Shown: positions 39,118 to 64,000 of the stretch, piece after piece
Position numbering within the stretch: position 1 is the stretch's first letter
Layout: the number at the start of each line of letters is the position of its first letter
From: a virus
Virus record (IMG/VR): IMGVR_UViG_3300042359_000621
DNA: 64,000 nt
Strand: one strand, 5' to 3'
Translations under genes and position numbers: made by a program
The notes under the pieces: model-generated
Told to the model about the DNA's origin: nothing
Databases searched by the model: none
Seen by the model: the letters and a program-made list of their open reading frames with translations, nothing else

Positions 39118-39606
39118 CTAAAACCCCCTTATTAGTTCAACGGATGCCCCTTCTGGAATAACGATTGTGATGGCGGGATGTCGCGCGGGTAAGCATGACT
39201 CCAAATTCACAATGTCGTTTATTCCATTTGTTGCTGTTTTTGTCAGCCCATTAATTGCTACAGTTCCGGTTAAAACAGTCATATAAACATAACAACTACC
39301 TGCGGGAATAGTTGTTGTGCCTGCTGTTAAAATCCTCCAATCTGCTGTTAAGTTGGTCGCGGGCAACTCAACCGGAATCCTGTTATTAGAAAGACTGGGA
39401 ATCTTGGCGTTTACTGCTTCAAGGGTTGTTTCTTTAGCCAAGCCAGAGACATCTGTAGACCCCCCTCCCCCTCCCCCTACGCCTTCACTCGATATAGCAC
39501 GATAAACCTCCCAGTAGGGAAGTGTCTGTGCAGGGTGTTCCAGTGCTTCTATTTGCTCTCTAATTAAAGCAGCCGCATCCGCTTGTTGTGTACTAATATC
39601 AGGCAT
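39118..39606 (-). CDS. Hypothetical virion protein
   Basis: 162-aa ORF abutting the fibre gene. Confidence 0.45.
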   Translation of the reverse strand: MPDISTQQADAAALIREQIEALEHPAQTLPYWEVYRAISSEGVGGGGGGSTDVSGLAKETTLEAVNAKIPSLSNNRIPVELPATNLTADWRILTAGTTTIPAGSCYVYMTVLTGTVAINGLTKTATNGINDIVNLESCLPARHPAITIVIPEGASVELIRGF

Positions 39607-39735
39607 TTTTCATAAAAATAAGTATTTATAAATAATTTTAACCCCTCTTTTATTGATTGCATTTTCAATTTAAGAAATTCCCACAAGAAGTGTGATTAGC
39701 ACTTGACATATAGCGGGTCGGAGTATTTCACGAAA

Positions 39736-49206: not shown

Positions 49207-51195
49207 ATGACCGCCCAATCATCCGAGACAACAAAAAAAGAAACCACCACAGAGATTGTGAATCGTTATAGAGAAGACTCTCGTGTCATGATGCAAGCGT
49301 TAGCGGAGAGTGCCGACGCAAGTTCGATGCGAAATCCTCTCCCTGTAACGGGAAGAATCCAGCCTTTCTCTCAACAGCAAGTAGAAAACTGTTTAGCAGA
49401 CGCGATCTTAAAACGAATAGCGTGGAGCCTCCCATCTTCGTCAACTCAAAAGATGTGGCAGTTATCCTTGGGAGATGATTTTTCTAGTAAGACGGGTTCT
49501 AAATTAGTCCGAGATTATTATGCCTATCACGAAAGATTGAAAACCATATCACAATTTAGAAAAGCATTGCAGTTCTCTCGCTCTCATGGTGGGACAGTTA
49601 TTATTCTCAAGATTAACGATGGAAGACATTATTCCGAACCTGTTGATGAAGGCAAGATTAAATCAATCTCTGGGTTAATCGTTCGTCACCGATGGCAAGT
49701 TGCTCCTTCGGTGAGAACGGCTGCTAGTATATTTGACCTTGATGACATTGAACATTATGAAATCCTAACAATTGACCAACAAATAAAACAAAAATTACTA
49801 TTTAACGGAACAAATTCCAAGCAGGATGATCGCCTGATTCATCGGTCAAGAATCCTCCGGTTTAATGGGGCATTAATGCCTGATGATTGGATGATTTCCT
49901 ATAACAATGGATGGGGATTGAGTGTCTTTGACGAGGTTTGGAAATATTATAAAAACTATACAAATGGACTCAATGCAGTAGGCGAATTAATTAAAACCCA
50001 ATCAGTTCTACAGCATTCTTTTGAAGGACTGCGGGAACTGATGATGGCATCTGATGAAGAAAGTATCGCAGCTATTAAGCAAACCATGAAATCAATCCGA
50101 CTAATGTTTGATCTATATGGCATGGTTCTCCACGACTCCCGTGAACAATTCAACTGGAATGCCCGCCCCGTCGTCGGGATGGATTCACTCGTGCAAGTAC
50201 AGAAGGATGGGGTAACAGGAGCCTCTGGGATGCCTCACACGATAGTTTGGGGAGAAAGCCCTGGGGGTTTGGGGCGTGATGGCAAGGAGACCCAAATCAA
50301 CTATGCTAACTCGGTGGCAGAGTACCAAGGAGAGAGCTTAGATCCTAGCGCAGCTATTCTTGATCGTTATATCTTCTTGGCTAAAGACGGCCCCACAAAA
50401 GGCAAAATCCCCGACAACTACCAGAGGCAGTACCCTTCTATCTTGAGGATGACCATCGAGGATCTCCGCTCTGGACGCTCATCTGATATTCAGGCATTGG
50501 CTTCAGGTATTCAAGCCGGATTCATCACGACAGATGAAGCTCGGACAGTGCCTTCTAACTCCGGTTGGTGGCCAGAGCTTAACCTTGATCAAAAAGCATG
50601 GGAAGAAGCCAGGAAAAAAGCAGAAGAACAAGCAAACTTCCTTGGTGGTTTTGATATGGGAGCATTAGGAGGCGAGGAAGCTGCCCCACCCACTGAAGAA
50701 CCCGTCGAAGAAGAATCTATAACTCAAATGGACAGTGCTGTTTACACCCCAATAAAGCGGGTTCTTAATTGGCACGGGCTATCAATTGGGGTCACTCACG
50801 ACAAAGGGGATCTTCGCTATAACAAAACGATGAAGGTAGGGTATGGGCATATTAGACGCAGCTATGGACACGCGGAGGACGCAAAAGCAATCGACGTTTA
50901 TATCAAAAATCCAAACTCACCTAGTCTCTGGAAGGTTCGGCAACTCAACACAACAACAGGGGAGATTGACGAAACAAAGTATTTCTTGGGTTTTGATTCC
51001 CCCAAAGAAGTGCGCGATTGCTATTACTATCATGCCGGATTAGATCGTTTTGGAGGAGTGGAGAAGTGCGATCCTACGGAATTAAACCAATACCGCCAAG
51101 ATGCAGAAGAATTGGAGGGAGTTAATGAAGTTTATCAAAATAAGATATTAACAGATGTAGCAAATAGAATCAATCAACAAACTCAATTAGATTAA
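49207..51195 (+). CDS. Portal protein with a C-terminal extension domain
   Basis: Size and position at the start of the head operon, divergent from the TerL operon. The HRSRILRFNG region is typical of DUF1073-type portals. Confidence 0.6.
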   Translation: MTAQSSETTKKETTTEIVNRYREDSRVMMQALAESADASSMRNPLPVTGRIQPFSQQQVENCLADAILKRIAWSLPSSSTQKMWQLSLGDDFSSKTGSKLVRDYYAYHERLKTISQFRKALQFSRSHGGTVIILKINDGRHYSEPVDEGKIKSISGLIVRHRWQVAPSVRTAASIFDLDDIEHYEILTIDQQIKQKLLFNGTNSKQDDRLIHRSRILRFNGALMPDDWMISYNNGWGLSVFDEVWKYYKNYTNGLNAVGELIKTQSVLQHSFEGLRELMMASDEESIAAIKQTMKSIRLMFDLYGMVLHDSREQFNWNARPVVGMDSLVQVQKDGVTGASGMPHTIVWGESPGGLGRDGKETQINYANSVAEYQGESLDPSAAILDRYIFLAKDGPTKGKIPDNYQRQYPSILRMTIEDLRSGRSSDIQALASGIQAGFITTDEARTVPSNSGWWPELNLDQKAWEEARKKAEEQANFLGGFDMGALGGEEAAPPTEEPVEEESITQMDSAVYTPIKRVLNWHGLSIGVTHDKGDLRYNKTMKVGYGHIRRSYGHAEDAKAIDVYIKNPNSPSLWKVRQLNTTTGEIDETKYFLGFDSPKEVRDCYYYHAGLDRFGGVEKCDPTELNQYRQDAEELEGVNEVYQNKILTDVANRINQQTQLD

Positions 51196-51441
51196 TTTTA
51201 AATTAATTGGTTTTTGAATGCAACTTAGTCAACCCATTTTATTTCACTAGGGTTGGCTAAGTTGTCTAAACTGTTACATCAAATCTTTGTCGGTTCCTGA
51301 TTTACGGGCTGCGTAAATCTATGTATAGGTTAAGGTAGTTTGGCAACAATTGGCACTTCGGACAGTAAGGACACCCCAGACCCACTGCAACGGTCTGTCT
51401 CCCGCCTATTCACCAAGAAATCAATACAATAAAAAAGGTGT

Positions 51442-51466
51442 GATTTTCTTATATAGAAATTATTTT
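51442..51466 (+). promoter_or_regulatory. 25-nt motif GATTTTCTTATATAGAAATTATTTT (copy 1), candidate late promoter or regulator site
   Basis: Identical to 60778-60802. Contains a TTTCT-TATAT-AGAAA inverted repeat. Lies 74 nt upstream of the ATG at 51540. Confidence 0.5.
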
Positions 51467-51539
51467 GTAAAGTCCTGTTGATCTATAAGAATTTAACCTT
51501 AAAATTATAGTGATAACTTCTGATCAGAAGGGTTTTATC

Positions 51540-51932
51540 ATGCCAATTCCTGTTAGTTTTTTCAATCTTACAAGAGCCGGAAAGGTTTACGCCTTCAAGC
51601 CCGAAGACATCTCGTTTGGGGACGACGACACTCTTGAGGTTAAATTAAATCAAGGGGGAGATATAGCGGTCATCCCTCTTGTAAAAAAATCCGTGACATT
51701 AACAATTCAGGGTGCTGTTGACACTGATCTTGATACGTTTGAAACCGAGAGAACCCAAAATGTCCAAAACTTAATTGACAATCAGCCGGTTGGCGCAAAC
51801 ATGGCTTTTGCAAACTATATTATTTACAGTGCTTACTTGCGAAAAGTAACCCCCACTGCCCCAATTACCGTGTCAGGGAAGACCTTGTTTGACACGATTG
51901 AACTAGAGTTTGCCTCTCGCGTTTACGTTTAA
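51540..51932 (+). CDS. Hypothetical head-module protein
   Basis: The track ORF was trimmed to the ATG at 51540 (MPIPVSFF), which has GAAGGG upstream. Confidence 0.45.
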   Translation: MPIPVSFFNLTRAGKVYAFKPEDISFGDDDTLEVKLNQGGDIAVIPLVKKSVTLTIQGAVDTDLDTFETERTQNVQNLIDNQPVGANMAFANYIIYSAYLRKVTPTAPITVSGKTLFDTIELEFASRVYV

Positions 51933-51994
51933 ATTTATACTGCCTAAGCCAATCAAGGTTTAGGTAGTAGCCCCTAAAATCTATGTATAAAAAG

Positions 51995-52111
51995 ATGACA
52001 TTTATACTTTATAGACAAAGATTAAGATTTGATGCTCCGCCAACAGAAATCCAAGCGAAGTTAGCGATCGCCAAAGTACATCTCAATATTGGCAAAAGTG
52101 AACTTAATTAA
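51995..52111 (+). pseudogene. 38-aa fragment of the N-terminal module of the head-module paralog family
   Basis: RLRFDAPPTEIQAKLAIA matches LLRFDA(A/V)PTE(V/E)QMKLAI at the N-termini of 52428, 53585 and 57083. Confidence 0.5.
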
Positions 52112-52160
52112 GCAAAAACAAAGTACAATAGACTCATCGCATTAAAAAGGAAAATCAATT

Positions 52161-52385
52161 ATGAAAGCTAAAAAAACTGCTGTTGAAGGACAGAAGAAAA
52201 TTAAAACCGTTCCCCCTGCTGTTGTAGATGAAGATGAGGATGTTTTAGGGGAAGGGGAGACATTGCAGGAATTTGACAAGAGAATGGAGAAAAAATATCC
52301 GAAAAGAAGTTATGACGATTTGACAGAAGAAGAAAAACGCGAACGTGCCAAACGTTTTGTAGCTCAAGGGCCGGAAGACTGGTAA
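52161..52385 (+). CDS. Hypothetical charged protein
   Basis: 74-aa ORF with AGGAAAA upstream. Confidence 0.45.
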   Translation: MKAKKTAVEGQKKIKTVPPAVVDEDEDVLGEGETLQEFDKRMEKKYPKRSYDDLTEEEKRERAKRFVAQGPEDW

Positions 52386-52427
52386 GTTTGCAATCCGCAC
52401 CCGTACAGAAAGATTTAACTCAAAACA

Positions 52428-53516
52428 ATGGTCACCACCTTAAACCGTCAAAATCTCCTTCGCTTTGATGCTGTTCCTACCAAGGAACAGATGCGGTTGG
52501 CGATCGCTCAAACACTATCCCTCCCCTCAATTTATAATTCTCCAGTTATCATACTGGACTTTGAAGTGGGTGATGATGGTAAAATTACGGGGCGGTTTAA
52601 GGATGCTGATCGTCCTCGTGTGTTTAGCTTCGAGATTTTGGACGATATCCGTTTTAGCCCTTTTAAGTCTGGGCGACTGGACAATGAGGAGGAATGGGAG
52701 GATTTTTCCCTTGGTTATAGCTTTCGCTTTGATACACCCGGAGGGGCTAAAAAAAAGCCGCAGTGCGTGAAACCCACGTCTTATAATTGTGGTAAATCTT
52801 GCATAAATATTAAGAAAAATTGCAGGTGCAATCCCGATGATGCTCAGTCAAAAGATAGAATAGATAAATTAAAGTCTCTGGCGAAGGATTTTAAAAAGGG
52901 GCAAGAAGGGGGAGGAAAGCAGAAGGAATCAAAAGTTTCTGAATCAAAGGACAAGAAACTTTCTTACTCTAATTTTGAGAGTGACTTTGAAGACCTTTAT
53001 TTTGAGGAGAAAAGGAAACAAGAGTTAAAAGGTGTTGTAGCAATTAAACGCCGACAGATGTTAGATATTGCCGAAGGAAAGTACAATGTTCCCCGTGAAC
53101 AGTTAGAGGATTATTTCGAGAAGTTAAAAGATAATAAAAAAATATTCTCAGTAATAGAGAAAGGGGAAGAATTATTATCTTGGGTTGGAGGACAGACACC
53201 CAAAAAGCAGGGAAAACAACCTAAAGCCAAATCTTCTAAAACAAAAGACTTAGTTGCAGGACAAAAAGCAATCAAGGAAAAACAGATATCTTATGCTAAA
53301 TTCGAGAAAGACTTTAAAGAATTCTATAACGAAGAAAAAAGAAAGCAGGAACTACAGGGGGTTGTAGCAATTAAACGCAATAAGTTGTTAGATGATTATG
53401 CTAAAAAAAATGGGATTTCTCGACAGCAATTAGATAATCATTTTGAAAGTCTTAAAACCAATGGTAAGATATTCTCTGTCAAAGAGAAAGGGGAGGAGTT
53501 GTTTCAGTGGAACTAG
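52428..53516 (+). CDS. Head-module paralog 1: shared N-terminal module plus two 75-aa tandem repeats
   Basis: The N-terminal 160 aa are homologous to 53585 and 57083, including C-x7-C-x3-C-x6-C. Repeats span aa 178-252 and 287-361. Confidence 0.6.
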   Translation: MVTTLNRQNLLRFDAVPTKEQMRLAIAQTLSLPSIYNSPVIILDFEVGDDGKITGRFKDADRPRVFSFEILDDIRFSPFKSGRLDNEEEWEDFSLGYSFRFDTPGGAKKKPQCVKPTSYNCGKSCINIKKNCRCNPDDAQSKDRIDKLKSLAKDFKKGQEGGGKQKESKVSESKDKKLSYSNFESDFEDLYFEEKRKQELKGVVAIKRRQMLDIAEGKYNVPREQLEDYFEKLKDNKKIFSVIEKGEELLSWVGGQTPKKQGKQPKAKSSKTKDLVAGQKAIKEKQISYAKFEKDFKEFYNEEKRKQELQGVVAIKRNKLLDDYAKKNGISRQQLDNHFESLKTNGKIFSVKEKGEELFQWN

Positions 53517-53584
53517 GTTAGTATTTTAAAAGCAAGCTAAAACAGATCCAAGTAAAAAAATTAGAATTAATTAAATTTTAAAAT

Positions 53585-55816
53585 ATGGTCACAATTTCAA
53601 GTTATCAAAATCTCCTTCGCTTTGATGCTGCTCCTACGGAAGTGCAGATGAAACTTGGTATTTCTCAAGTTTTGTCGATGCCATTTGCCTACAACTCTCC
53701 GGTTATCGTTCTGGACTTTGAAGTAGGCAATAAAAACATCATCAAGGGACGGTTTAAGGATGCCATTAGATCCCGTGTTTTTGAGTTTGAGATTGGGGAT
53801 TCTATCACGTTCAAGCCGTTCACCTGGAGGCGAACGGATAGCGACGTTGACCCGATGGCGTGGGAAGACTTCTCTAAAGGGTATTGCTACCGATTCGATG
53901 CAGTTAAGACCGTCAGAAAGGAAAAACCTAAGTGTGGCAATACCTCCTATAACTGCGGCAAAGCCTGCATTGGCTTAAACAAGAATTGCAAATCAGATCC
54001 CCCCGATAAACCGTCCCAGGAGAAAGTCGATAAACTCAGAGCCGCAGCAGGGGAGTTTAAAGCTGTTCAGGGCGATCCAACCAAGAAGCAAGAGGATAAT
54101 AAGTTAACGCCAAAACCACAGGAAGTTAAGGCGGTTAAGACCAAAACTGCTAAGGGCGCGATCGCTAAATCAGAAACACCACCAAAAACACCCAAGACAA
54201 CTAGACCCAAGGTAGGGACAAAGCAGTATGACGAATGGCTAGAAACCGAATCTCAAAAACTCAAGGGTAAAGATGGGGAATATGTAATTAAAACCCGTTC
54301 GGGGGATGAGACGGTCAAAGGAACCGTTTATGGCAATGGATTGGGGATTAATCCAAATAAAGGGTCTTTGTACAACACTCACAGCGTTACGCACATCGGC
54401 AGTGGCAGATCGTTGGGTGATTTTGATGATGAAGTTCAGGCTAAAAAGGCATTAGTTGAGTTGAACCGATCCGGCGTTAATTGGAGCGAACAAGACTTAA
54501 CAAAAATTCCAGGGATAGAGAAGAAAATAGTCAAAGTTAAGGGCTTGATAGATAATGCCAAAGACTCGGACTTAAGGGTTAAACGGGATGCTAAAAGGAA
54601 GGTGATAGAGGAAAAACGAGCTAAAGACGATGCCAAAATTGAGGCTGGTATGCAAAGGTTTAGAGAGGAAGAAGCTAAGAAAAAACAACAGGCTGAAATA
54701 GACAGAAAAATACAAGAGGAAAAAAATAAGGTAGAGCGTGAAAAGCAAGTTGAGGCTATGAAAAAGATGGCAGAAGATCAAGCAAAAGTTTATCAAGATT
54801 ATGAGATCAATAGAACAAATCAACTGATCGGAGAATTGAAATCATCCTTTGATGTTAAGTCATTGGAGTCTGAAGTTAGCGTGCTGGAATCGAGGCTAAA
54901 GACGGAATCATCTCCCAAGGCAAAAAAAGAGTTAAACCAACGATTAAATAATGCAAACATCAAACTAAAGGAGGTTAAAACATTTTTATCTCAGGACAAA
55001 CTTGAAACCTATCCCGCTTTTTTGAAATCCAGAGTAAAGGGAATGGCTAATACTGTTGGGATTGAAAAAACCAGGGAGATTTTACAGGAGCAAATTGACA
55101 ATTACAAGAAACAAGTAAAGGAGGAGCCAAAGCAAAAAACAATAAAAGTTCAAGGGGAGCGATCGCAAGAACAAGAATCCCCTCTAATTCCGAAAGAAGA
55201 AATAGTTAAAGAGGCTCCTAAGCGAATTGGGGATGGAACCCAAAAAAGCTCCCCTCTTAATGCTCAGGAATACCACAAAATGATGGTTGAGAGAGGGAAT
55301 AATATCTCAATAGAAGAAGCTGAGGAAACTGTTAAATCAATCGTGTCGTGGAAACTTAGAAACGATGCCATAAGAGGAGATCAGCAACAAGGAAAGCCCA
55401 ATAAAGATGCAGATAACATTGATAACTTTATCAAAAACTCTACACCTTATGAGGGAATGGTCGCTAGAGGGCTTAAGTTTTTCAGTAAAGAGGAAGCAGC
55501 AAACTTTATCAAAGGGGATGAGAATGGGATATTAAATAACCAGTCTGCTCATGCTTCATGGACTTCTGATTTTGATCAAGCTAAGAGGTTTGCTGATGTA
55601 GAGTCAAAAACAAATCCCTACTGGAAGGAATATTCTGAAAATCTTTATCCTGTGATTGTCCTTGCCAAAAATAAAACAGGTGTTCCAGCCCAAAATACAG
55701 GAGATGGATTACATAGTAACGAAGCCGAGGTTATTGTTTCAAAGAATACAAGGCATAAAGTTGTTAGGGTGATAGATAGAGATGGAATTATTTTAGTGGA
55801 AACCGAAGAAGTGTAA
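53585..55816 (+). CDS. Head-module paralog 2: shared N-terminal module, K/E-rich coiled coil and a C-terminal ADP-ribosyltransferase-like domain
   Basis: N-terminal module as above. The C-terminus has VARG (R), ASWTSD (S-x-S) and NEAEVIV (E-x-E) with spacing typical of R-S-E ARTs. Confidence 0.6.
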   Translation: MVTISSYQNLLRFDAAPTEVQMKLGISQVLSMPFAYNSPVIVLDFEVGNKNIIKGRFKDAIRSRVFEFEIGDSITFKPFTWRRTDSDVDPMAWEDFSKGYCYRFDAVKTVRKEKPKCGNTSYNCGKACIGLNKNCKSDPPDKPSQEKVDKLRAAAGEFKAVQGDPTKKQEDNKLTPKPQEVKAVKTKTAKGAIAKSETPPKTPKTTRPKVGTKQYDEWLETESQKLKGKDGEYVIKTRSGDETVKGTVYGNGLGINPNKGSLYNTHSVTHIGSGRSLGDFDDEVQAKKALVELNRSGVNWSEQDLTKIPGIEKKIVKVKGLIDNAKDSDLRVKRDAKRKVIEEKRAKDDAKIEAGMQRFREEEAKKKQQAEIDRKIQEEKNKVEREKQVEAMKKMAEDQAKVYQDYEINRTNQLIGELKSSFDVKSLESEVSVLESRLKTESSPKAKKELNQRLNNANIKLKEVKTFLSQDKLETYPAFLKSRVKGMANTVGIEKTREILQEQIDNYKKQVKEEPKQKTIKVQGERSQEQESPLIPKEEIVKEAPKRIGDGTQKSSPLNAQEYHKMMVERGNNISIEEAEETVKSIVSWKLRNDAIRGDQQQGKPNKDADNIDNFIKNSTPYEGMVARGLKFFSKEEAANFIKGDENGILNNQSAHASWTSDFDQAKRFADVESKTNPYWKEYSENLYPVIVLAKNKTGVPAQNTGDGLHSNEAEVIVSKNTRHKVVRVIDRDGIILVETEEV

Positions 55817-55866
55817 CAAGTTAAAAAAATAGTGAATTTATCCTCTGTTTTGCCCAAAATAAAAAT

Positions 55867-55918
55867 GTTATAATTAATAATAACAAACGCCTCTCGCGGT
55901 GCGCTAACACCCAGAGGC
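55867..55918 (+). promoter_or_regulatory. Extended -10 promoter (TGTTATAAT) plus conserved leader hairpin, cassette copy 2
   Basis: TGTTATAATTAATAATA, then GCCTCT-CGC-GGTG-loop-CACC-C-AGAGGC at 55889-55918. Confidence 0.5.
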
Positions 55919-55950
55919 AGTAAACCTAAAACTTAAAACAGAGGTTCACC

Positions 55951-56559
55951 ATGTCGGATATTGTAAGATCAATCCGTGCCGAATTGGAACTAGGCAACAG
56001 AAGTATTGACTGCTATCTATTCCCAGATGGGGAGAAACGGATCGGAATTGGTGGCGCGAGTATTGCCATCGGACGGAGTAAAGAGTATTTGGGTCGCTTA
56101 TTGAAAAGCGAATCAGAGGATCTCGGAAAACTCAAAATCATGGGATTCTGTGGAAAAATTGTCGAAACGGAGTTTCTGTTTGGGAGAGGATCTACTCGCT
56201 CCAAAACTATTTCTTTGGCTGATTTTGATATTCTGATGATGTTTTTTGTTGACTTGCGGATGAAAAAAGAAAAGAAAAATCCTGAAGGTATTGTTAGGGA
56301 TAAGTTATTAGAACAGTCAGGGGGATCTAAAGAGGTTTCTACATTGGCAGGAAAGATAGACATATTAACCCCATCGCAAATAATAGAAGTAAAACAGGTT
56401 AATGGATGGAAAGGGGCTTTAGGACAAGTTTTAGTCTATGGATATTATTACCCGTCTCATCAGAAAAGGATTCATTTGTTTGGAGAGTGCCATAGTAGCT
56501 ATCTCGATATTATCCAAAAACATTGTCAAGAATTTGATGTTATTGTTACATGGGAATAA
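55951..56559 (+). CDS. Cassette copy 2: weakly Bro-N/KilA-N-like N-terminal domain fused to a PD-(D/E)XK-like nuclease domain
   Basis: Paralog of 32707..33399. C-terminus STLAGKIDILTPSQIIEVKQVNGWKGALGQ. Confidence 0.55.
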   Translation: MSDIVRSIRAELELGNRSIDCYLFPDGEKRIGIGGASIAIGRSKEYLGRLLKSESEDLGKLKIMGFCGKIVETEFLFGRGSTRSKTISLADFDILMMFFVDLRMKKEKKNPEGIVRDKLLEQSGGSKEVSTLAGKIDILTPSQIIEVKQVNGWKGALGQVLVYGYYYPSHQKRIHLFGECHSSYLDIIQKHCQEFDVIVTWE

Positions 56560-56611
56560 GATTTACCAGGTCGGCTAAACGGAGTCTAAAGCCCTCAAAG
56601 AGCTACAGGGT

Positions 56612-56950
56612 ATGGGTTTCACAGGTCGCACAAAAGACACTGAGGTTAAGATAGCCAGAGGTGCGACACGAAGCAAGACCATCTCATCCAGAGACTTTAC
56701 GAAGTTAATCACATGGGATGCGGTAGTCAATAATAATCAAGATTCCATTATTTTGTTGGCTGCGTTTGCCGAGACGGGGTTGGATGACATATTGGAAAAA
56801 GTCTTCACACGGCAATCGTTGGACTTTCTGTTAGAAAAAATAGTCCACTATAGCAAATGGACTATGGAAGACTTACAAGAAGCCCTCGATGCAAATAACG
56901 ATGATTGGAGAGTGATCAGGGAACAAGAGCAGTTTTTATTAGAGGGCTAA
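56612..56950 (+). CDS. Second ORF of cassette copy 2
   Basis: The N-terminus MGFTGRTKDTEV..TRSKTISSRDF repeats the mid-region of 55951..56559. The C-terminus matches 32341..32550. Confidence 0.5.
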   Translation: MGFTGRTKDTEVKIARGATRSKTISSRDFTKLITWDAVVNNNQDSIILLAAFAETGLDDILEKVFTRQSLDFLLEKIVHYSKWTMEDLQEALDANNDDWRVIREQEQFLLEG

Positions 56951-57002
56951 ACATCAAATTTGTTTAACAGGTTAGTATGGGATATATGCTACTCTTAACC
57001 CC

Positions 57003-57047
57003 ATGCTAACTCTAAAATTCGTTGCTAACGGCTCCAAAGATTGGTAA
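57003..57047 (+). pseudogene. Duplicated 5' end of the gpG-like gene (14 codons, MLTLKFVANGSKDW)
   Basis: 56981-57029 is a near copy of 59953-60001, which contains the true start (MLSLKFVAN). Confidence 0.5.
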
Positions 57048-57082
57048 ACTAAGAAGATTAGCAAATTAAATTAATTCATATT

Positions 57083-59890
57083 ATGATTACAACTCCCGTC
57101 ATCAAAGCAAACCAATCTAACATGGCTCCCACCGAAGTTCAGATGAAGTTAGCGATCGCGCAAGTCCTATCCCTTCCATTTGCCTACAACTCCCCCGTAA
57201 TTGTCGTTGATTTTGAGGCAGGTAACGGGAATGTGATCAAGGGTAGATTTAAGGATGCCTCCCGACCCCGTATATTTGAATTTAAGATTGATGACTCCAT
57301 AAGTTTTAAGTCATTTACCTGGAAAAGAATAGACAGCGCGGATATCGATCCAGTGGTGTGGGAAGAATTTTCTAAAGGGTACACCTATCGGTATGACGCA
57401 GTTAAAACCAAGAGGAAGGAAAAACCTAAGTGTGGCAATACCTCCTACAATTGTGGCAAAGCCTGTATTGGGTTGAATAAAAACTGCAAATCAGATATAC
57501 CGGATAAACCCTCCCAAGAAAAAGTCGATAAACTCAGAGCCGCAGCAGGGAAATTTAAAGCCGTTCAGGATGATCCAATCAAGAAGCAAGAAGATAATAA
57601 ATTAACGCCAAAACCACCGGAAACAAAACCGACACTAGCGAACGAAGATAAAATGCGCGATACACTAAAGAAAGCTATCGCGGAAAATGAGTTGAATAAA
57701 AGTTTAGCAGAAACAGCTTATCAAAAATACCACCAGTATCAAAACGGACTAAAAAATGAAGCAGAAGGTTTATCATCTCGGTCTATCGCTAGTTTATATC
57801 AAATCCCCCACGCCACTGCTGTAGCTAGAATTAACGGACTTAGAGAAGCTGTTGGACTAGGAGGGTCTAATGCTGTATCTGTTGACAAAGAATTAGGGGG
57901 AAGAATTAACGACCTTTTAAATAATGGGAAACAAATTAAAATTAATTCGTCAGGCGGTCAACTAAAAGATCGGAAAAAAGAACCAAGTCAAACAACAATT
58001 AATGCTGACAAAAAATGGTCTGACTTTTTAGAATCTAAAAATGTTACAGAGAAAGGACTTAGAAAACTAGACCCTGAGACTAGAAAGAAAATTACAGAAG
58101 AATTTGAAAATACTCGGATTGAAGAAAGGGCTCAGGAGTCAAGCAAAAGGAAAGGTCTATCACTACCTGAAGACCCCAAACCATCCCCAAATTCAACAGG
58201 GGTTAAGGGTGCGGGGGGTAAGACACTTGACCTAAAAGATTTGTGGCAACAGACAGCCGACGCTGCTTATTCTAAAAATAAAGATGGGGTCTCAAAAAAT
58301 CTTGAGCAATGGAAAGAAGTTGTTAAAAAACTAGAGTCAGGGGAGGGAATTTCTAAAGATGTTAACTTAAACGAATACGAAAAGTTGATGGATAATTTAG
58401 AAAGAAAATTAGTCCTTAACCCAAAAGATCCGTCTAATGTCGAGTTTAAAAAAATTACTGGGTCTATTTATAGAACTCTTGACAAGGCTGTAAGATACGA
58501 TCCGTTAACTCAGGAAGATTTAGAAAAAGCTCACCCCAACTTTAGACCCATCATGCAACGGATGAAAAAAACCGTTACCAAGGTAAACGAATTATCCGGT
58601 AAAAAACAGCAATTACAAAAGGAATTAGACACATTAAAACACAGACAATCTTATAACGAGCTTATAGTCAAATCTAATTCAAGGCAATTTCGTGAAACGG
58701 CGATTGACAATAATTATAATGAGCTTAGGCTCCTTACGATGCGAAACCCGAATGACATGATAGAAGTCAGAAATCCAGTATCTAATCTCCCAGAAAGGAC
58801 AGTATCCATCCCGACAAGGATTAATGAGATCAACAAAGATATTAGAGATTTGGCAGACGATAAAAAGGCTGTGGAGTCTTCAGATCGTGCTAAGGGCGAA
58901 ATAGCTAAATTACAGACCAAAATTAAAGATGCTGAAAGTCGGGCAACTTCCTTAGATGGTGAAATTAAGGCGTTAAGAGAATCGAGAGGAACGGGATCTG
59001 TTTTATCAGAACCTAAGTCAGCCCCTATTCCTGCTGTAGCACAAAGAGCGATCGCTAAAACCAAGACTGACAAACCCCCTGTTAAATCGGTTGATCAACA
59101 ATACAAGGATATTATTGCCAGTTCTAAAGATCCAAAAGGAACAGAGGAGGCTTTGTCATCGGCACTCAGAGGCGGTATAGGTGACTTCGAGAGAAAGAAT
59201 TATAACGAGTATTTAACTGCGATAGCTTCTGGGACAGTCCCAAAAGGAATGGGAGACTATTATCAAAAGCAAATTGATAAATATAAGCCCGTTATTGATG
59301 CCGAAAACTTCATAAACGAGAGACGGCAAAAGGCAAAAGCAGGTGATTATGAAACAGAATCAGAAGCAGGGGTTTATATTCTTGATAAACTAAAACAAAA
59401 AGGCTACAAAGAGCATGAATATTATGATAGTCCAGACTATAAAATGGATTATGACAAATTAAAAACCGTAATGAAGTCTATGGAATTACCTCCCCCTCTG
59501 TCTGGTAATATTCCTAGTAAGGAATTAAAACAGACACTAACTCAGGGGGATAAATTGCTAGTTAAAGAAAGCACTTATTCTATGATGGGAGGAAGTTCCC
59601 CTGCGGGTTATCGAATTGTTGACGGTGGCGAAGTTCTAAAAGTTAATGTCAAGAATGTTAAAACAAGAGTCCAGGGCGAGTATATGGGGAAACCTTATAA
59701 AAATGAGCCATCCCTTGCCCTTGATACAGTTACCCACGTCATCCGAGATGGTAAACGTTACAAAGTAGATGATTCTGATAGTTCCCCTAACGACTTAAAG
59801 CCTGAAGTTACTCAACCCCAGAAGGCAGTAAAACAAAAGTCAATAAAACAAAAGGCGATAAAAGTTCAAGAGGTGCGATCGCAAGGTTAG
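57083..59890 (+). CDS. Head-module paralog 3: shared N-terminal module plus a long C-terminal region of unknown function
   Basis: The N-terminal 165 aa are about 80 percent identical by eye to paralog 2. The remainder is unrelated to it. Confidence 0.6.
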   Translation: MITTPVIKANQSNMAPTEVQMKLAIAQVLSLPFAYNSPVIVVDFEAGNGNVIKGRFKDASRPRIFEFKIDDSISFKSFTWKRIDSADIDPVVWEEFSKGYTYRYDAVKTKRKEKPKCGNTSYNCGKACIGLNKNCKSDIPDKPSQEKVDKLRAAAGKFKAVQDDPIKKQEDNKLTPKPPETKPTLANEDKMRDTLKKAIAENELNKSLAETAYQKYHQYQNGLKNEAEGLSSRSIASLYQIPHATAVARINGLREAVGLGGSNAVSVDKELGGRINDLLNNGKQIKINSSGGQLKDRKKEPSQTTINADKKWSDFLESKNVTEKGLRKLDPETRKKITEEFENTRIEERAQESSKRKGLSLPEDPKPSPNSTGVKGAGGKTLDLKDLWQQTADAAYSKNKDGVSKNLEQWKEVVKKLESGEGISKDVNLNEYEKLMDNLERKLVLNPKDPSNVEFKKITGSIYRTLDKAVRYDPLTQEDLEKAHPNFRPIMQRMKKTVTKVNELSGKKQQLQKELDTLKHRQSYNELIVKSNSRQFRETAIDNNYNELRLLTMRNPNDMIEVRNPVSNLPERTVSIPTRINEINKDIRDLADDKKAVESSDRAKGEIAKLQTKIKDAESRATSLDGEIKALRESRGTGSVLSEPKSAPIPAVAQRAIAKTKTDKPPVKSVDQQYKDIIASSKDPKGTEEALSSALRGGIGDFERKNYNEYLTAIASGTVPKGMGDYYQKQIDKYKPVIDAENFINERRQKAKAGDYETESEAGVYILDKLKQKGYKEHEYYDSPDYKMDYDKLKTVMKSMELPPPLSGNIPSKELKQTLTQGDKLLVKESTYSMMGGSSPAGYRIVDGGEVLKVNVKNVKTRVQGEYMGKPYKNEPSLALDTVTHVIRDGKRYKVDDSDSSPNDLKPEVTQPQKAVKQKSIKQKAIKVQEVRSQG

Positions 59891-59974
59891 TAGATGTTTC
59901 GGACGTTTCCATGTGTTAAAGCCTCCTTTTTTGTTTCGTTATACTGAAGTCAGATATATTCTACTCTTAACCCC

Positions 59975-60394
59975 ATGCTATCCCTAAAATTCGTTGCCAA
60001 CCAAGCCCAAAATTACCTCAATAAATTAATCAGAAAGTTTCAGAACCTCACACCTGAACTGCATAAAGTCGGGCAGTTTATGGTGGCATCAACCGACGAG
60101 AACTTTCAAAAGGAACAGAGTCCTTACGGGGAGAAATGGGAACACCTAGCCCCATCAACCCTCAAATACAAGGCAAGTCGGGGTTTTATTATGCAAATAT
60201 TACAACGCCAAGGATTGTTGCGATCTTCTATTCGGTATCGGATTGAAAAAGGAAGGGTTGAGGTAGGGAGTCCATTGCCCTATGCCTCCTATTTACAAGA
60301 AGGCACTAAGAAAATGCCTAAACGTCAATTTTTAGGAGTAAGTCAACGCGATCGCAGGGAGATTATCGCTATTCTAAAGGGTTCTCTTCGTTGA
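59975..60394 (+). CDS. Virion morphogenesis protein (phage Mu gpG-like)
   Basis: ENFQKEQSPYGEKWEHLAPSTLKYK...LLRSSI...PYASYLQEGTKKMPKRQFLG matches the gpG family pattern. Confidence 0.6.
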   Translation: MLSLKFVANQAQNYLNKLIRKFQNLTPELHKVGQFMVASTDENFQKEQSPYGEKWEHLAPSTLKYKASRGFIMQILQRQGLLRSSIRYRIEKGRVEVGSPLPYASYLQEGTKKMPKRQFLGVSQRDRREIIAILKGSLR

Positions 60395-60743
60395 TCTCGA
60401 CAAGTTTATCAATAAGACCTGGGTTGATTTCTTGAGGGATTTCTTGCTCAATAATCTTTAAAGTTTCCTTAGTCCAAGCAAGGATCAATCGTTCTGCCTC
60501 CGATTGATCCTCAGAAATTAACGAAGCGATAATCAATAGTTCTACGAAATCCGTCCGCCGCTCCCCCATTAAAATCCGTCGAATTGTCTGCCAATCCCAT
60601 CCACTTTTTTCACTAAATTCCATCATCCCAAAATTTGCATTTATAAGATCCCGTCGAATTGACCGACCAAGAGCGCGATAGGGAGCCAACGCACCAGATC
60701 CTAGTGTCTTCTTAGAAGGATACTCTCTTTTGATAGTAGTCAT
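60369..60743 (-). CDS. Opposite-strand putative HTH protein embedded in the head module
   Basis: 124-aa ORF. SGWDWQTIRRILMGERR is HTH-like. Its 3' end overlaps the 3' end of the gpG-like gene by 26 nt. Confidence 0.45.
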   Translation of the reverse strand: MTTIKREYPSKKTLGSGALAPYRALGRSIRRDLINANFGMMEFSEKSGWDWQTIRRILMGERRTDFVELLIIASLISEDQSEAERLILAWTKETLKIIEQEIPQEINPGLIDKLVEINEENPLE

Positions 60744-60777
60744 TATTTATATCTAAATCATTGGTTTAATTTTAGTC

Positions 60778-60802
60778 GATTTTCTTATATAGAAATTATT
60801 TT
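60778..60802 (+). promoter_or_regulatory. 25-nt motif GATTTTCTTATATAGAAATTATTTT (copy 2)
   Basis: Identical to 51442-51466. Lies 72 nt upstream of the ATG at 60874. Confidence 0.5.
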
Positions 60803-60873
60803 TTTACACCATCTTTAAATGACTGATAAGGTGCGTTATTCTTTAACAAGAATTATTTTTTTTGTATTGAGAA

Positions 60874-62391
60874 ATGGTTGAAATCAGGCTTGATGCTCCA
60901 GCTAAATTTAGGGTAATCAGAACTGATGATGGTCGCCTCCATTGTGAGGGGTCTTTTTGTCGTGATGGGGTGTTGGAATATCGTCAGCCTGATGGCTCCA
61001 TAGTCCACGAACTCAGGAGACCGGAAACCAATGCAGAACTAGCCACAGTGGAGAGTTTTAAGCTCCTCCCCCTGGTAATTGAACATCCCCATGTTGGGCT
61101 TCTTAATAGCGAAAGTTATAAGGATTACGCAGTCGGGATGACTGATTCTTCTGCTTATTACAACAAGGCTGAAGGGGTGATCGAAGGCTTGGTGTCGTTT
61201 TTTGATGCTAAAGCGATCGCCCTAATTGATTCAAGGGAAAAGGAACAGTTGTCTGCGGGATATACCTGCGATATCAAACAAGGGGCAGGGGTATGGAATG
61301 GTCAACACTACGACAGAGAACAGATTAATGTTCGTGCTAACCATTTGGCTTTAACGAGCCGAGGAAGGGCAGGAGAAGATGCCCGTCTCCGATTAGATAG
61401 TGCTGCGGGGATTGGGCAAGCTATTGTAGGGCAAGCTGTTGAAAACCCTAGTAACCCCAACAAAACCAAAGATAATGGAGATAATGAACAGCGCATGGCA
61501 ATAATTAGATGCGATGGAGTCGAATATTCAGGAATCCCTGAAGTTTTCGCTTCTATTAGTGGTACTCGATTCCGTGAATTAAAAGAATTAAAGGAACGCC
61601 ACGATTCGCTTGTTACACGGTTTGACGCTACGATTCGGGAGAATCGGAAGCTAGAAGCCGCACAAGAGAACTACCAGTTTCGGTTAGATAACCTGGAAAT
61701 CATTGTGGACAATGCTGACAATGTCCTTGGTGAGTTAGGTTATTACCGGAACGACATGGGGCAATACGTCCGTGTTGATGGGGGCAAAAAGAAAATGATG
61801 TCTTTTGTTCCCGAAGATGAAGAAATGATGGAAGATGAGGACAATGAAGATGAAGAAATGATGGAAGATGAGGATGTTATGGAAGAAAAAGAAACCATGA
61901 CTTCCAGAAAGAAAAAAAAGTCCAAACCTCGTGCTGATGGCGACGATGAAGGCGAGAGTGATTACCGGGGTGATTCAATCGGGGATCTGTTGGCGATTTG
62001 GAAGGAAGCCGACAGTTTGTTACCAGGGTTCTCTGACACTCGGTTTGATAGTGGCTTCTCCACTAGCGATATCAAGCGCACTTTGTTGGCTGAAATCGAA
62101 CCCAATATGGATTTGACGTTCCGATCCGATTCTTATGTAGACGGGGTTTTTGCCTACATTCAGGAGAATTATGATTCCTCCCCCACCGATCCAGGTGACG
62201 AAGAAGAAGGGGATGAGGAGGAGGAAGACGATGGAGACTCGGAGGAGTTTTCCCATCGCCTTGATTCGGTACTCAAAAGACCTGCTCAATCTACCTACGG
62301 AGATGAACTCACCGAATGGGAAAGACGACGGGTAGATGCCTATAAGCAGCCTTTAACGATAGGAAAAACACGCACGGGGTTTACTAGATAA
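60874..62391 (+). CDS. Prohead scaffold/protease-like protein (DUF2213-type N-terminus, acidic C-terminal half)
   Basis: N-terminus GVLEYRQPDG..ELRRPE..LPLVIEHP..LSAGYTCD. The C-terminus has long D/E/M runs typical of scaffolds. Confidence 0.55.
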   Translation: MVEIRLDAPAKFRVIRTDDGRLHCEGSFCRDGVLEYRQPDGSIVHELRRPETNAELATVESFKLLPLVIEHPHVGLLNSESYKDYAVGMTDSSAYYNKAEGVIEGLVSFFDAKAIALIDSREKEQLSAGYTCDIKQGAGVWNGQHYDREQINVRANHLALTSRGRAGEDARLRLDSAAGIGQAIVGQAVENPSNPNKTKDNGDNEQRMAIIRCDGVEYSGIPEVFASISGTRFRELKELKERHDSLVTRFDATIRENRKLEAAQENYQFRLDNLEIIVDNADNVLGELGYYRNDMGQYVRVDGGKKKMMSFVPEDEEMMEDEDNEDEEMMEDEDVMEEKETMTSRKKKKSKPRADGDDEGESDYRGDSIGDLLAIWKEADSLLPGFSDTRFDSGFSTSDIKRTLLAEIEPNMDLTFRSDSYVDGVFAYIQENYDSSPTDPGDEEEGDEEEEDDGDSEEFSHRLDSVLKRPAQSTYGDELTEWERRRVDAYKQPLTIGKTRTGFTR

Positions 62392-63221
62392 TGCGGTACA
62401 ATTACAATCTTCAATTTGATCGGGCGACTCCTGGCATGGGCGAGGGATCTATTAATTTTCCGAGGGTCAAAGCCCTTGTTTCTGTCAAGAATGCTGTTAA
62501 AGAGGTCTGGACTCTGGCGGTTCCTGCCTCCCCCACTTCTAGCACTACATATACCGTCAAATTAAACAACGGACTAGGTACGGCACGTTTTACAACCGAC
62601 GCTAGTGCCACTCAAGCGGAACTGCAAGCTGGTTTATTGAATGCAATCCGAATAAACCCTGCTTTTGGGCGACGAGGGATTGCTGCTGTTAGTGGGAATA
62701 ATGTGTTGTTTACAGCACTGGAATATGGTATCGAAAATATCCTAACAGTTACTGGTGCTAGTTTAACAGCAACTAAGACTACGGCGATGACCATACCTCT
62801 TCCTGTCCCATTCGGTCGGTTTGTCGCCAGAGCAAACACTGAAACCGATCCCAAAGTTGCAGGGCTTCCTACTGCTACTACTGACGTAATCCTGGGCATT
62901 ACTCGAATCGTCAAAGATATCGAAATGCAGCCTTTGATAAATCAAGGTGCAAGTTACGGTGGAACGACTTACCCATATCAAGATGTGATGGACGTGGTTG
63001 ACCGGACAGGAGAATCGTCAGGGATCTGGGTTGAATGTGTCGAGACGGATATCACAATTAATGATGCCGTCTACGTCTCTATTGCTGCGGGACACGAGGG
63101 GAAAGCAACAAAGGTGACAAGTGGCACGATTAATATCTCCACGAAGGCTGAGTTCAAGTGTTCCCCCGTAGTCACTAGCACTGGTGCGGTGTGCGTTTTG
63201 ATCGGCTTCAATGTTCCCTAA
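62391..63221 (+). CDS. Hypothetical head structural protein
   Basis: 276-aa ORF between the scaffold and capsid genes, with an ATGA-type overlap. Confidence 0.45.
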   Translation: MRYNYNLQFDRATPGMGEGSINFPRVKALVSVKNAVKEVWTLAVPASPTSSTTYTVKLNNGLGTARFTTDASATQAELQAGLLNAIRINPAFGRRGIAAVSGNNVLFTALEYGIENILTVTGASLTATKTTAMTIPLPVPFGRFVARANTETDPKVAGLPTATTDVILGITRIVKDIEMQPLINQGASYGGTTYPYQDVMDVVDRTGESSGIWVECVETDITINDAVYVSIAAGHEGKATKVTSGTINISTKAEFKCSPVVTSTGAVCVLIGFNVP

Positions 63222-63246
63222 TTTGTATAGAAAGAATTTATAAACT

Positions 63247-64000
63247 ATGATGAACTTTTCTGGGACTACAAGGTTAGATGCTGATGAAATCGGGACGTTC
63301 TTTGGCTCTCTGATGGATTTAGAGGCTCAGATAGATAAGGAATTTGACCTTGCGGACTATCCTTTCGCTGCTGGAGTCATTTGCCCTCTGAATATCCAAA
63401 ACAAGCCCTGGGCAAAAACCTGGGGGTATCGGTGGCTCCGCCACGTTGGGCAGTTCAAGTTAATCCGAAACTACACCACAGACCTTCCCGAAGTGGAACT
63501 GGTCTATGGCGAGATGAAGATGCCGATTCATAAATGGGGACAAGGCTATAGCGTCTCTGAGGATGATATCGCGGCTGTTAGTCGGATGGGCGAGAGTATT
63601 GAAGAAGACAAAATCTGGACAATTCAAGAAGCCGCACAACAAAAAATCAATCAGTTGGTGGCAAACGGGGATTTAGAAACCGGAATGCCCGGTTTCTTGA
63701 ATCATCCCCAAGCACTGCGATCTTATGCTCCCTTCCCTTTGAACGGGTCAGCAACATCACAGCAAAAACTGAGTGTATTAAATGATTGTGTTAATGCTCC
63801 GACTCGGCTGACCAATAACCGAGAGAAGCCGGACACATTGTTGATGGATTCGGAAACTTACGAACACCTCTCCTCGGATATTATTCAAATCGGCACATCC
63901 GCATTGGATCGTACGGTGTTAGAGCATTTCTTAAAAGTCAACCCCAATATCAAAGAAGTCGGCGTTGTGTCCGAGATGGCTCCTGACTATTTAGAGTCGA
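63247..64000 (+). CDS. Major capsid protein (partial, runs off the window)
   Basis: Open frame from the ATG at 63247 to the window end. It follows the scaffold, and the sequence resembles DUF2184/HK97-fold capsid proteins. Confidence 0.55.
   Translation, partial: MMNFSGTTRLDADEIGTFFGSLMDLEAQIDKEFDLADYPFAAGVICPLNIQNKPWAKTWGYRWLRHVGQFKLIRNYTTDLPEVELVYGEMKMPIHKWGQGYSVSEDDIAAVSRMGESIEEDKIWTIQEAAQQKINQLVANGDLETGMPGFLNHPQALRSYAPFPLNGSATSQQKLSVLNDCVNAPTRLTNNREKPDTLLMDSETYEHLSSDIIQIGTSALDRTVLEHFLKVNPNIKEVGVVSEMAPDYLES

Follow-up and report, generated by a model that had tools for sequence, protein, structure and literature searches.

What are the proteins encoded just beyond the portal gene of this cyanophage, three of which begin alike and end differently? 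The stretch of viral DNA analysed here (the window, 64,000 nt) comes from a close relative of the Planktothrix phage PaV-LD. In it, three ORFs on the + strand encode proteins of 362 aa (A, 52428-53516), 743 aa (B, 53585-55816) and 935 aa (C, 57083-59890), which the original prediction took to be one N-terminal module fitted with interchangeable payloads. We lean towards the answer that they are paralogous members of a basic, polymorphic protein family, in which the module would serve incorporation into the virion and the variable C-termini would be cargo acting on the host.

Judged by its alignment with PaV-LD, the locus appears to be a hypervariable island (52428-59950) among the head genes of a Planktothrix cyanophage of PaV-LD type. 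The island is mosaic with respect to PaV-LD although the flanking DNA is 97-99% identical at the nucleotide level (left flank, 49207-52111, 99%; right flank, 59956-64000, 97.9%), and it starts 1.2 kb 3′ of the portal gene, with the genes for A, B and C clustered with the head genes and on the same (+) strand. The left flank holds the gene for the portal protein (49207-51195, +; Pfam Phage_portal_3, E 2.4e-44), which has a C-terminal InPase domain (E 5.2e-26), and that for a 140-aa protein (51510-51932, +; phrog_35535, E 2e-82) homologous to PaV-LD ORF058R and to ORF_030 of cyanophage CL131, the latter a virion protein by LC-MS/MS that resembles PaV-LD YP_004957331. A conserved 74-aa ORF (52161-52385, +; 99% aa identity to PaV-LD ORF060R) bounds the variable island on its left and served as the flank marker when island architectures were compared; in the right flank, 59975-60394 (+) encodes a neck or tail-completion protein (Pfam Phage_tail_S, E 2.9e-22). 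Between B and C lie two ORFs of 202 and 112 aa (55951-56950, +), a split homologue of PaV-LD ORF068R that contains additional inserted sequence. This split gene in the window, like a KilA-N gene in PaV-LD, is an unrelated insert in the island.

The shared N-terminus measures ~165 aa, and in BLASTP comparisons its E values run from 1e-44 (A against C) through 1e-52 (A against B, 51% identity) to 2e-93 (B against C). B and C are ~78% identical up to aa 190, and A stays similar to both until about aa 165-178. The sequence motifs by which the module had been recognised are present, except that the LLRFDA stretch is absent from C and from its PaV-LD orthologue. The cysteine knot is found in all three proteins, as C-x6-C-x3-C-x6-C at aa 117-135 of B and C and as C-x7-C-x3-C-x6-C at aa 113-132 of A (CVKPTSYNCGKSCINIKKNC, nt 52764-52823, +); its four Cys and one Gly (C-x6/7-C-G-x2-C-x6-C) are invariant among 78 homologues and are followed by a basic helix. 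In B, the module (aa 1-165) occupies 53585-54079 (+; Cys knot, nt 53933-53989) and shares 91% aa identity with that of PaV-LD ORF061R; in C, it occupies 57083-57577 (+; aa 1-165; Cys knot, nt 57431-57487), with 86% aa identity to PaV-LD ORF065R over aa 1-180. The module consists of two halves, one beta-rich and one made of the Cys knot plus a helix, which are also found separately from each other. In the predicted fold, which is only moderately confident (pLDDT 74.7), the first half would be a helix with a four-stranded beta meander and the second a four-Cys knuckle that probably binds metal and leads into a long helix. In profile searches no Pfam model matched the module or its Cys knot, the LPD and DarA-N families included, and the module profile found nothing among PDB sequences; the predicted structure had no match in the PDB at E <= 0.001, and its matches in BFVD at that threshold were family members only.

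Beyond the module the three proteins diverge, as had been claimed; the accompanying idea of effector domains throughout fared less well, only one of the three payloads in the window being a recognisable enzyme. Protein A (module aa 1-165), which has no counterpart in PaV-LD and an identical copy in IMG/VR contig L002, ends in a tandem repeat pair (aa 174-252, nt 52947-53183; aa 283-361, nt 53274-53510; 47 of 79 positions identical). This pair had been anticipated, with a unit of 75 aa that proved to be 79 aa, and it weakly matches the winged-helix region of BirA (E 0.045). Protein B contains a cassette, b1 (aa 215-301, nt 54227-54487, +), that in PaV-LD lies within ORF065R behind the other module type, then a charged helical stretch (43% K/R/D/E across aa 330-505), then a conserved linker (KVQGERSQEQESPL..., 55106-55219, +) common to C, PaV-LD ORF061R and the family member P0009, which on sequence grounds is a putative recombination junction, and finally the ART-like domain expected there (aa 546-743, nt 55220-55816, +). 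The motifs of this domain follow one another as R628 (YEGMVARG), S658-x-x-S661 (SWTS) and E713-A-E715. A profile of the domain, built from seven relatives, matched the Vis ADP-ribosyltransferase in the PDB (4xzj, E 0.0013), and the alignment placed the motif regions of B opposite YRG, STS and EAE of Vis. The domain of B itself has no Pfam match; among its relatives, PaV-LD ORF079R scores above the cut-off of PF01129 (24.2 versus 22.3 bits) and a module protein of contig L041 above that of PF03496 (27.8 versus 23.4 bits). We regard aa 546-743 of B as a predicted ADP-ribosyltransferase bearing the motifs of the R-S-E clade (C3 / Vis / Alt-VIP2-like). Protein C carries cassettes c1 (aa 379-623, nt 58217-58951, +), common to PaV-LD ORF065R, and c2 (aa 660-934, nt 59060-59890, +), which in PaV-LD lies within ORF061R behind a B-type module and which terminates at a KVQEVRSQG linker, where relatives run on into an ART domain. 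In agreement with the original prediction, ~750 aa of C are without a family match, and a search of this payload against PDB sequences found nothing.

A further trace of the module lies at 51983-52111 (+), a 42-aa ORF equivalent to PaV-LD ORF059R (82% aa identical). A decayed fourth copy had been proposed here; the fragment is real, but just a stub of ~28 aa (LRFDAPPTEIQAKLAIA...) resembles the N-terminus of the module (E values of 9e-6 to 1e-3 against a small database; about 65-70% nucleotide identity, judged by eye from the alignment). We considered a whole decayed module continuing through 52112-52430, where there is a weak collinear HMM match in the same frame (E 4.6), and rejected it: in Smith-Waterman comparison with the three modules, 558-1313 of 2000 shuffled sequences reached the score of the real one, and control frames did no differently.

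The payloads are indeed interchangeable. Some cassettes that follow one module copy in the window follow another in PaV-LD, and are thus shuffled between paralogues. Across related cyanophages, the same N-terminal module precedes differing C-termini, with 14 island architectures in 15 contigs and arrays of up to seven module or Cys-knot genes; a scan of genome contigs yielded four MAG contigs of PaV-LD type. When module and payload were compared pairwise among 56 related ORFs, 54 of the 172 pairs with a module identity of 85% or higher shared <30% of the payload, and 30 of 40 similarity break points between related contigs, likewise taken from pairwise comparison, fell 420-510 nt from the module start. 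The pairwise approach replaced single-linkage clustering of payload segments, an uninformative exercise in which mosaicism and K/E-rich stretches merged 186 of 267 segments into a single component. HIP1 palindromes, considered as recombination sites, coincide with the cassette junctions of the window but showed no enrichment at the 40 break points, and were discarded. The island is among the fastest-changing parts of PaV-LD-type genomes, the hosts of which are the toxic bloom-former Planktothrix, and its payloads are for this reason candidate host-range and anti-defence determinants.

The family reaches well beyond this phage group. Searched with a profile, 1.84 billion representatives yielded 154 proteins, which means a minimum of 154 clusters at 50% identity, so far only in cyanophage-type contigs. 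Of 134 full-module matches, 105 have the module start at residue 40 or earlier; several giant proteins contain two or three modules, and in P0103, P0105 and CL131 gp048 module and payload alternate. The majority of payloads have no Pfam match; those that do comprise InPase (9), GNAT (5), ADPrib_exo_Tox (5), ART (4), ParB_N (3) and kinase (2), as well as LPD1, esterase and LRAT, with MuF absent. Polyvalent proteins of the phage type, which are predicted to be head-packaged, have the same domain repertoire (PMC5512222; PMC9503650). The position next to the portal gene, pointed out for the window, recurs in an unrelated lineage: L041, a 110-kb viral contig, has the order portal, module-ART, InPase-module, module-X, module-ParB_N, the array beginning immediately behind the portal gene. 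InPase, the C-terminal domain of the portal protein in the window, is elsewhere found N-terminal to the module, and InPase-portal fusions have been described in work on polyvalent proteins (PMC5512222). PaV-LD has a second cluster of module-family genes after its head-completion genes, and in both PaV-LD and CL131 the second module or Cys-knot cluster lies between these and the tape-measure gene. Members of the second cluster are partly located where tail or ejection genes are expected, and a tail-lumen or structural role would fit them equally well.

Are such proteins ever part of a particle? In purified CL131 virions, LC-MS/MS detected gp044, gp045, gp047 and gp048 (SI Table 5, PMC6293099), with 123 PSMs for gp045 and 175 for gp048 (PMC6293099). 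Of these, gp045 carries a complete module, all four Cys included; the other three have Cys knots, those of gp048 being interleaved with lipase/esterase domains. Distant homologues of the module proteins do occur in virions, distant in that their local HMM E values are 2e-10 to 7e-7 in a one-genome search; their genes belong to the second cluster, close to that for the tape measure and away from the portal. A separate candidate, that gp045 is the missing major tail protein of CL131, which would turn the module into a component of the tail tube, we consider unlikely in view of its pI of 9.66, its C-terminus, an Ala/Lys-rich basic repeat, and the lack of a tail-tube match in BFVD. The portal-InPase-MuF fusion of CL131 did not reveal a module within it by HMM search, and hhalign gave 26% probability over 53 columns only.

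How might these observations fit together? We propose that the module incorporates its protein into the virion, the likeliest route being that it docks within the prohead near the portal, the scaffold or the DNA. The cargo would then act on the host at infection, B as an ADP-ribosyltransferase, A through its small repeat pair and C through its unassigned domains. New combinations would arise by recombination inside the module, immediately behind it, and at brief conserved linkers (for example KVQxxRSQ), with the consequence that related phages carry differing cocktails. What the data show directly is paralogy, a module in two parts, mosaicism, a broad family with its range of payloads, an association with portal genes and the presence of distant homologues in virions; we infer that the module is an incorporation signal and that A, B and C are packaged into the particle, and we surmise, more speculatively still, that they are ejected. 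More tentatively than the general scheme, we suggest that the module is a previously undescribed incorporation domain without a known structural relative, which functionally replaces MuF in the phages of filamentous bloom-forming cyanobacteria and enables each phage to load up to ~10 different, recombining effectors into the head for delivery at infection.

Let us suppose instead that the module works mainly as a zinc knuckle for binding nucleic acid, so that the shared part confers DNA binding instead of capsid targeting, and that the proteins are basic, DNA-associated factors that coat or condense the phage genome or act, once synthesised, on DNA of host or phage, their presence in virions resulting from riding on the DNA or from a general affinity for the capsid interior. 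The four invariant Cys and Gly followed by a basic helix would suit such a role, as would the pI of 9.1-9.4 of A, B and C (the CL131 virion proteins are basic too), the Ala/Lys-rich basic repeat that ends the abundant virion protein gp045, the ParB_N payloads in the family and the weak resemblance of the A repeats to the BirA winged helix. In tailed phages, however, proteins cannot be threaded through the portal along with the DNA, and DNA-bound proteins would hence still need a docking step in the prohead to be incorporated. The module matched no DNA-binding family in Pfam or the PDB. We consider this scenario rather unlikely as the principal function of the module; it overlaps with the incorporation model instead of excluding it.

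A role outside the capsid appears less probable again. The module might anchor variable domains to the tail or the virion surface, as part of a tape-measure/tail-lumen complex or of decoration fibres, with payloads serving adsorption or envelope penetration rather than acting as intracellular effectors. The location of the second cluster in PaV-LD and CL131 speaks for this, together with the CL131 record, which calls gp047 similar to a tape-measure-domain protein, the lipase/esterase domains of gp048, the fact that no protein of CL131 was ever assigned as its major tail protein, and the long charged helical stretches in B and C. Yet ART, GNAT, kinase, ParB_N and InPase payloads have cytoplasmic targets, the first cluster lies directly 3′ of the portal, the typical MuF position, the basic, Ala/Lys-rich gp045 is unlike tail-tube proteins, and none of the BFVD matches at E <= 0.001 was named tail-tube or fibre.

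We find it very improbable that the proteins are non-virion products, late or early, with an oligomerisation or regulatory domain at the N-terminus and a location among head genes that is incidental to a recombination hot spot. The island does gather unrelated inserts, but the portal-adjacent position is kept in a separate lineage, InPase is common to portal and module proteins, the strand and the cluster are shared with the head genes, and the CL131 homologues were detected in virions. Hardly credible, finally, is the view that the module is a strongly diverged MuF (SPP1 gp7) domain and the proteins ordinary MuF-type polymorphic toxins: the gene position is the same and phrog_16619, matched by the module, is labelled ‘minor head protein,’ but this phrog matches paralogues in PaV-LD over most of their length (ORF079R, 880 bits; ORF085R, 551 bits), so that MuF membership may not be what the label stands for, PF04233 is absent from the window proteins and the 78 homologues, profile and structure searches with the module gave no MuF-like match in Pfam, the PDB or BFVD, and CL131 has, besides its module proteins, a portal-fused bona fide MuF (PF04233, E 4.5e-12) without similarity to the window or to the 32-80 kb part of PaV-LD. 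That the module is unlike MuF had been part of the original prediction.

To return to incorporation by the module, head-packaged effectors are already a recognised phage strategy, exemplified by T4 Alt, MuF toxins and polyvalent proteins, although phages of cyanobacteria have been reported to lack them almost entirely (PMC5512222). The module family suggests that cyanophages use a different, unannotated adaptor for such effectors, and this adaptor offers a search handle for a large set of uncharacterised cyanophage effectors. If the module is indeed a packaging tag, it could become a portable tool to load foreign cargo into capsids.

Constant delivery parts with changeable ends are familiar from several systems. 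In the Rhs and CDI polymorphic toxin loci, a constant N-terminal delivery part carries variable C-terminal tips that recombine at conserved junctions, and truncated ‘orphan’ fragments beside the full genes recall the stub at 51983-52111; unlike these secretion systems, the module system is viral and virion-based, no immunity-like neighbour was noticed beside its genes, and many of its payloads are non-enzymatic or unassigned. Alt (summarised in PMC9503650) and other basic internal proteins of T4 are loaded into the prohead by an N-terminal targeting element and co-injected with the DNA, the targeting sequence being ~10 residues long and cut off by the prohead protease. The T4 internal proteins are abundant and basic, like CL131 gp045, but the shared part here is a predicted folded module of ~165 aa in place of a short peptide.

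Polyvalent proteins share ART, InPase, ParB-N, GNAT, kinase, LPD1 and esterase domains with the module family (Iyer, Burroughs, Anand, de Souza, Aravind 2017; PMC5512222), and the phages that encode either package their DNA by a portal-terminase system. In cyanobacteria, polyvalent proteins have been reported to be scarce (PMC5512222). Their multi-domain character has a counterpart in the giants of the family, which alternate module and payload; in the window, by contrast, the content is divided among separate genes with the module at the head of each, and only B has one recognisable effector domain. Unlike polyvalent proteins, the module proteins yielded no processing peptidase domain.

Close parallels exist with the MuF toxins (SPP1 gp7 / Mu gp30; PMC5512222, PMC9503650), which, like the module genes, are portal-adjacent members of the head-morphogenesis cluster. 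Both combine a constant N-terminus with highly variable enzymatic C-termini, ARTs being prominent among them, and for both it is presumed that the head carries them and that they reach the host together with the DNA. The module proteins differ in that the MuF domain is replaced by a two-half module with an invariant four-Cys knot and in that, unlike the single-gene MuF arrangement, several paralogues are present per genome, in two clusters.

The proteins encoded at 52428-53516 (A, 362 aa), 53585-55816 (B, 743 aa) and 57083-59890 (C, 935 aa), all on the plus strand, align over their first ~165 residues with a similarity far above chance (pairwise BLASTP E values of 1e-52, 1e-44 and 2e-93) and then diverge, as the original prediction had proposed. 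The four-cysteine pattern falls at residues 113-132 in A and 117-135 in B and C, and all three proteins are basic (pI 9.1-9.4). Past this module, A carries two 79-aa repeats that are 59% identical, B a charged helical stretch, earlier taken for a coiled coil, and a C-terminal ART-like domain, and C ~750 aa without a family match. The supposed decayed fourth copy does exist as a fragment, a plus-strand 42-aa ORF at 51983-52111, and is smaller than that description implies: it matches no more than the first ~28 residues of the module, and a shuffle test detected no further module remnant downstream.

The three genes occupy a variable island between conserved flanks. On its left side, the gene of the portal protein (49207-51195, plus strand), which ends in a C-terminal InPase domain of the type I pyrophosphatase-like kind, precedes a 140-aa ORF (51510-51932, plus strand), the module stub and, at the island edge, a 74-aa ORF (52161-52385, plus strand). 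On its right side are a neck/tail-completion protein (59975-60394) and a DUF2213 head protease (60874-62391); these, the portal and a minor capsid protein were identified in the flanks by Pfam. The 74-aa ORF terminates in RFVAQGPEDW, and ORF067R of the related Planktothrix phage PaV-LD (44 aa; 13617-13751 of PaV-LD locus L001), directly after the second ART gene of that phage, terminates in RFVANGPEDW; the two form a small, conserved pair of paralogues. A minus-strand 124-aa ORF between the neck and protease genes (60369-60743), without a family match, is the counterpart of PaV-LD ORF070L by position and size. The two small plus-strand ORFs between B and C (55951-56559 and 56612-56950) jointly make up a split homologue of PaV-LD ORF068R (phrog_32599), with a 33-aa segment duplicated at the split point; the first has ~100 additional C-terminal residues (KIDILTPSQIIEVKQ...) that resemble a nuclease-type D..EVK motif and have no Pfam match. 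This extra sequence may be a selfish element inserted into the island.

The window is collinear with PaV-LD at ~93% nucleotide identity, with 99% in the left flank (49207-52111) and 97.9% in the right flank (59956-64000), and the island itself matches only piecewise, at 70-90%. In the same slot PaV-LD has two module genes, ORF061R and ORF065R, followed by the short ART ORFs 062R and 066R, respectively. The module of B is of the ORF061R type (91% identity) and that of C of the ORF065R type (86%); A is without a counterpart in PaV-LD. The variable C-terminal parts, or cassettes, do not keep to these module types: c2, the last 275 aa of C, is found within ORF061R, and b1 of B within ORF065R, as is c1 of C, so that c2 and b1 stand behind the other module types, which indicates exchange. 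A conserved linker (KVQGERSQEQESPL...) lies N-terminal of the ART domain in B, in ORF061R and in a metagenomic family member, P0009. The C-terminal end of C is exactly this ART-preceding linker (KVQEVRSQG), and C thus appears to have lost an ART domain. In PaV-LD, ORF061R and 062R are a single gene split by one extra base, a T (CCTTAAA versus CCTAAA in relatives; L001 8860-8960, PaV-LD 40859-40959), without which they would encode one module-to-ART protein of ~1000 aa, like P0009. A sequencing error, a genuine split or a frameshift site could each account for the extra T.

Related contigs, in which module and payload are decoupled, rule out a recent tandem duplication that left the payloads unexchanged. 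An IMG/VR scan gave 33 loci, whose ORFs were then searched by local HMM, and module and payload were compared pairwise among 56 complete, non-identical module ORFs. Of the 172 pairs whose modules are 85% identical or more, 54 have under 30% of the payload in common, often none of it; conversely, 34 pairs with modules under 60% identical share more than half of the payload. Similarity collapses 420-510 nt from the module start, where the module ends, in 30 of 40 informative pairs, and the 15 contigs that keep both conserved flanks present 14 island architectures (1.8-8.0 kb, one to three module genes, the window having the most). The cyanobacterial HIP1 palindrome GCGATCGC occurs at 30 sites in the window versus 0.19 expected; those in the island (52064, 52500, 54158, 55159, 57152, 59048 and 59875) lie in the LAIAQ codons of the module and at or near four cassette junctions. 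By a crude test, HIP1 is not enriched at the 40 pairwise break points in related contigs (2.5% versus 2.2%).

When 1.84 billion representatives were searched exhaustively with HMMER, 154 proteins reached E ≤ 1e-3, and 94 of these also E ≤ 1e-10; tblastn with a divergent module against 50,697 deposited phage genomes found PaV-LD only. The module starts within the first 40 residues in 105 of 134 full-module matches, follows an extension of up to ~200 aa in 14 and is internal in 15; in P0048, the one member checked, this extension is an InPase domain, and several giant proteins have two or three modules. Four cysteines, a glycine after the second of them and an upstream aspartate are invariant in a 78-sequence alignment. 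HMM matches within the window are A, B and C only, and the window ends ahead of a second module cluster, found with the same HMM after the head-completion genes. This larger cluster lies before the tape-measure gene (PaV-LD 52141-60205; 142-8206 of locus L035). There, ORF078R and 079R have the full module, ORF080R, 081R and 085R the Cys-knot half only and ORF083R the first half only; the module therefore consists of two halves able to occur apart. ART-type domains are also present in ORF079R, which has two, and in ORF085R, and in related contigs (loci L028-L032) as many as 7 such genes stand in an array.

Pfam searches of 78 family members left the bulk of payload sequence without a match and identified InPase in nine, GNAT and ADPrib_exo_Tox in five each, ART in four, ParB_N in three, protein kinase in two, and pentapeptide repeats, LPD1, DUF676 esterase, LRAT and PARP in one each. 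This is the domain vocabulary of the phage-type polyvalent proteins, for which Iyer et al. predict packaging into the head and injection (PMC5512222; PMC9503650). The ART-like domain of B by itself falls below every Pfam threshold. An alignment of seven relatives retains Y-x-G-x-x-x-R-G, A-H-A-S-W-[TS]-S and E-V-I-V, and the profile built from it matches Vis, an arginine ADP-ribosyltransferase (4xzj; E 0.0013), whose YRG, STS and EAE lie opposite these motif regions.

For the module itself, no Pfam or NCBIfam model matches and a profile search of PDB sequences was empty. An AlphaFold2 model from a 67-sequence alignment (pLDDT 74.7) predicts helices at 19-30, 90-101 and 142-162, strands at 40-78 and small hairpins across the Cys knot at 121-137. 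With this model Foldseek found nothing in the PDB (best E 0.16, TM ≤ 0.26), and in BFVD only the PaV-LD paralogues, gp048 of cyanophage CL131 and two Nodularia phage proteins.

Several observations bear on where in the virion these proteins would be located. Immediately behind the portal gene of L041, an unrelated viral contig of 110 kb, come module-ART, InPase-module, module-X and divergent module-ParB_N genes, so the portal-adjacent position is conserved across lineages. InPase sits at the C-terminus of the portal, the end turned towards the capsid interior, in the window, PaV-LD and CL131; in P0048 and in L041 (9995-11566) it is N-terminal in a module protein, and in CL131 a single 1393-aa protein has it flanked by the portal and MuF domains. 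This alternation points, through guilt by association, to an internal location of the module proteins. CL131 has many structural genes in common with PaV-LD; its gp045 contains a collinear full module with all four cysteines (local E 2e-10), and Cys knots are present in gp044, gp047 and gp048. All four were detected in purified virions by LC-MS/MS, gp045 with 123 and gp048 with 175 PSMs compared to 86 for the major capsid protein (SI Table 5 of PMC6293099). In gp048, a 1811-aa virion protein (37706-40000 of locus L036), three Cys knots alternate with alpha/beta-hydrolase (lipase/esterase) domains, an architecture of the polyvalent type, here in a phage for which proteomic evidence exists.

The build of these proteins and the exchange of their cassettes are demonstrated. 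From genomic context, the fusions and the distant homologues, we infer packaging and delivery of A, B and C, and we lean, with modest confidence, towards the island encoding polymorphic virion proteins, in which the common module would secure incorporation into the particle and the C-terminal cassettes would be exchangeable cargo. A DNA-binding knuckle, which would overlap with this reading, seems to us unlikely. We are more doubtful still of a tail or surface anchor: the authors of CL131 were unable to identify its major tail protein (PMC6293099), but gp045, being basic with an Ala/Lys-rich repeat tail, better fits an abundant internal protein than a tail tube. That the proteins are not virion components at all we consider quite improbable. 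A divergent MuF is scarcely credible: within the reach of these tools MuF is excluded, with no PF04233 hit among 78 homologues and no match to the genuine CL131 MuF either in the window or in 32-80 kb of PaV-LD. The sole PHROG matches of the module are phrog_16619 and phrog_33618, and the label "minor head protein" of the former may not reflect a MuF member, because most of the length of the PaV-LD paralogues matches it (880 and 551 bits).

Polymorphic virion proteins with an incorporation module and exchangeable cargo would follow the logic already known from MuF polymorphic toxins and polyvalent proteins. What sets this family apart from those systems is a different, undescribed adaptor module, built of two halves with a Cys knot and carried by many separately encoded paralogues in two clusters, and its presence in cyanophages, for which a scarcity of such systems has been reported (PMC5512222).
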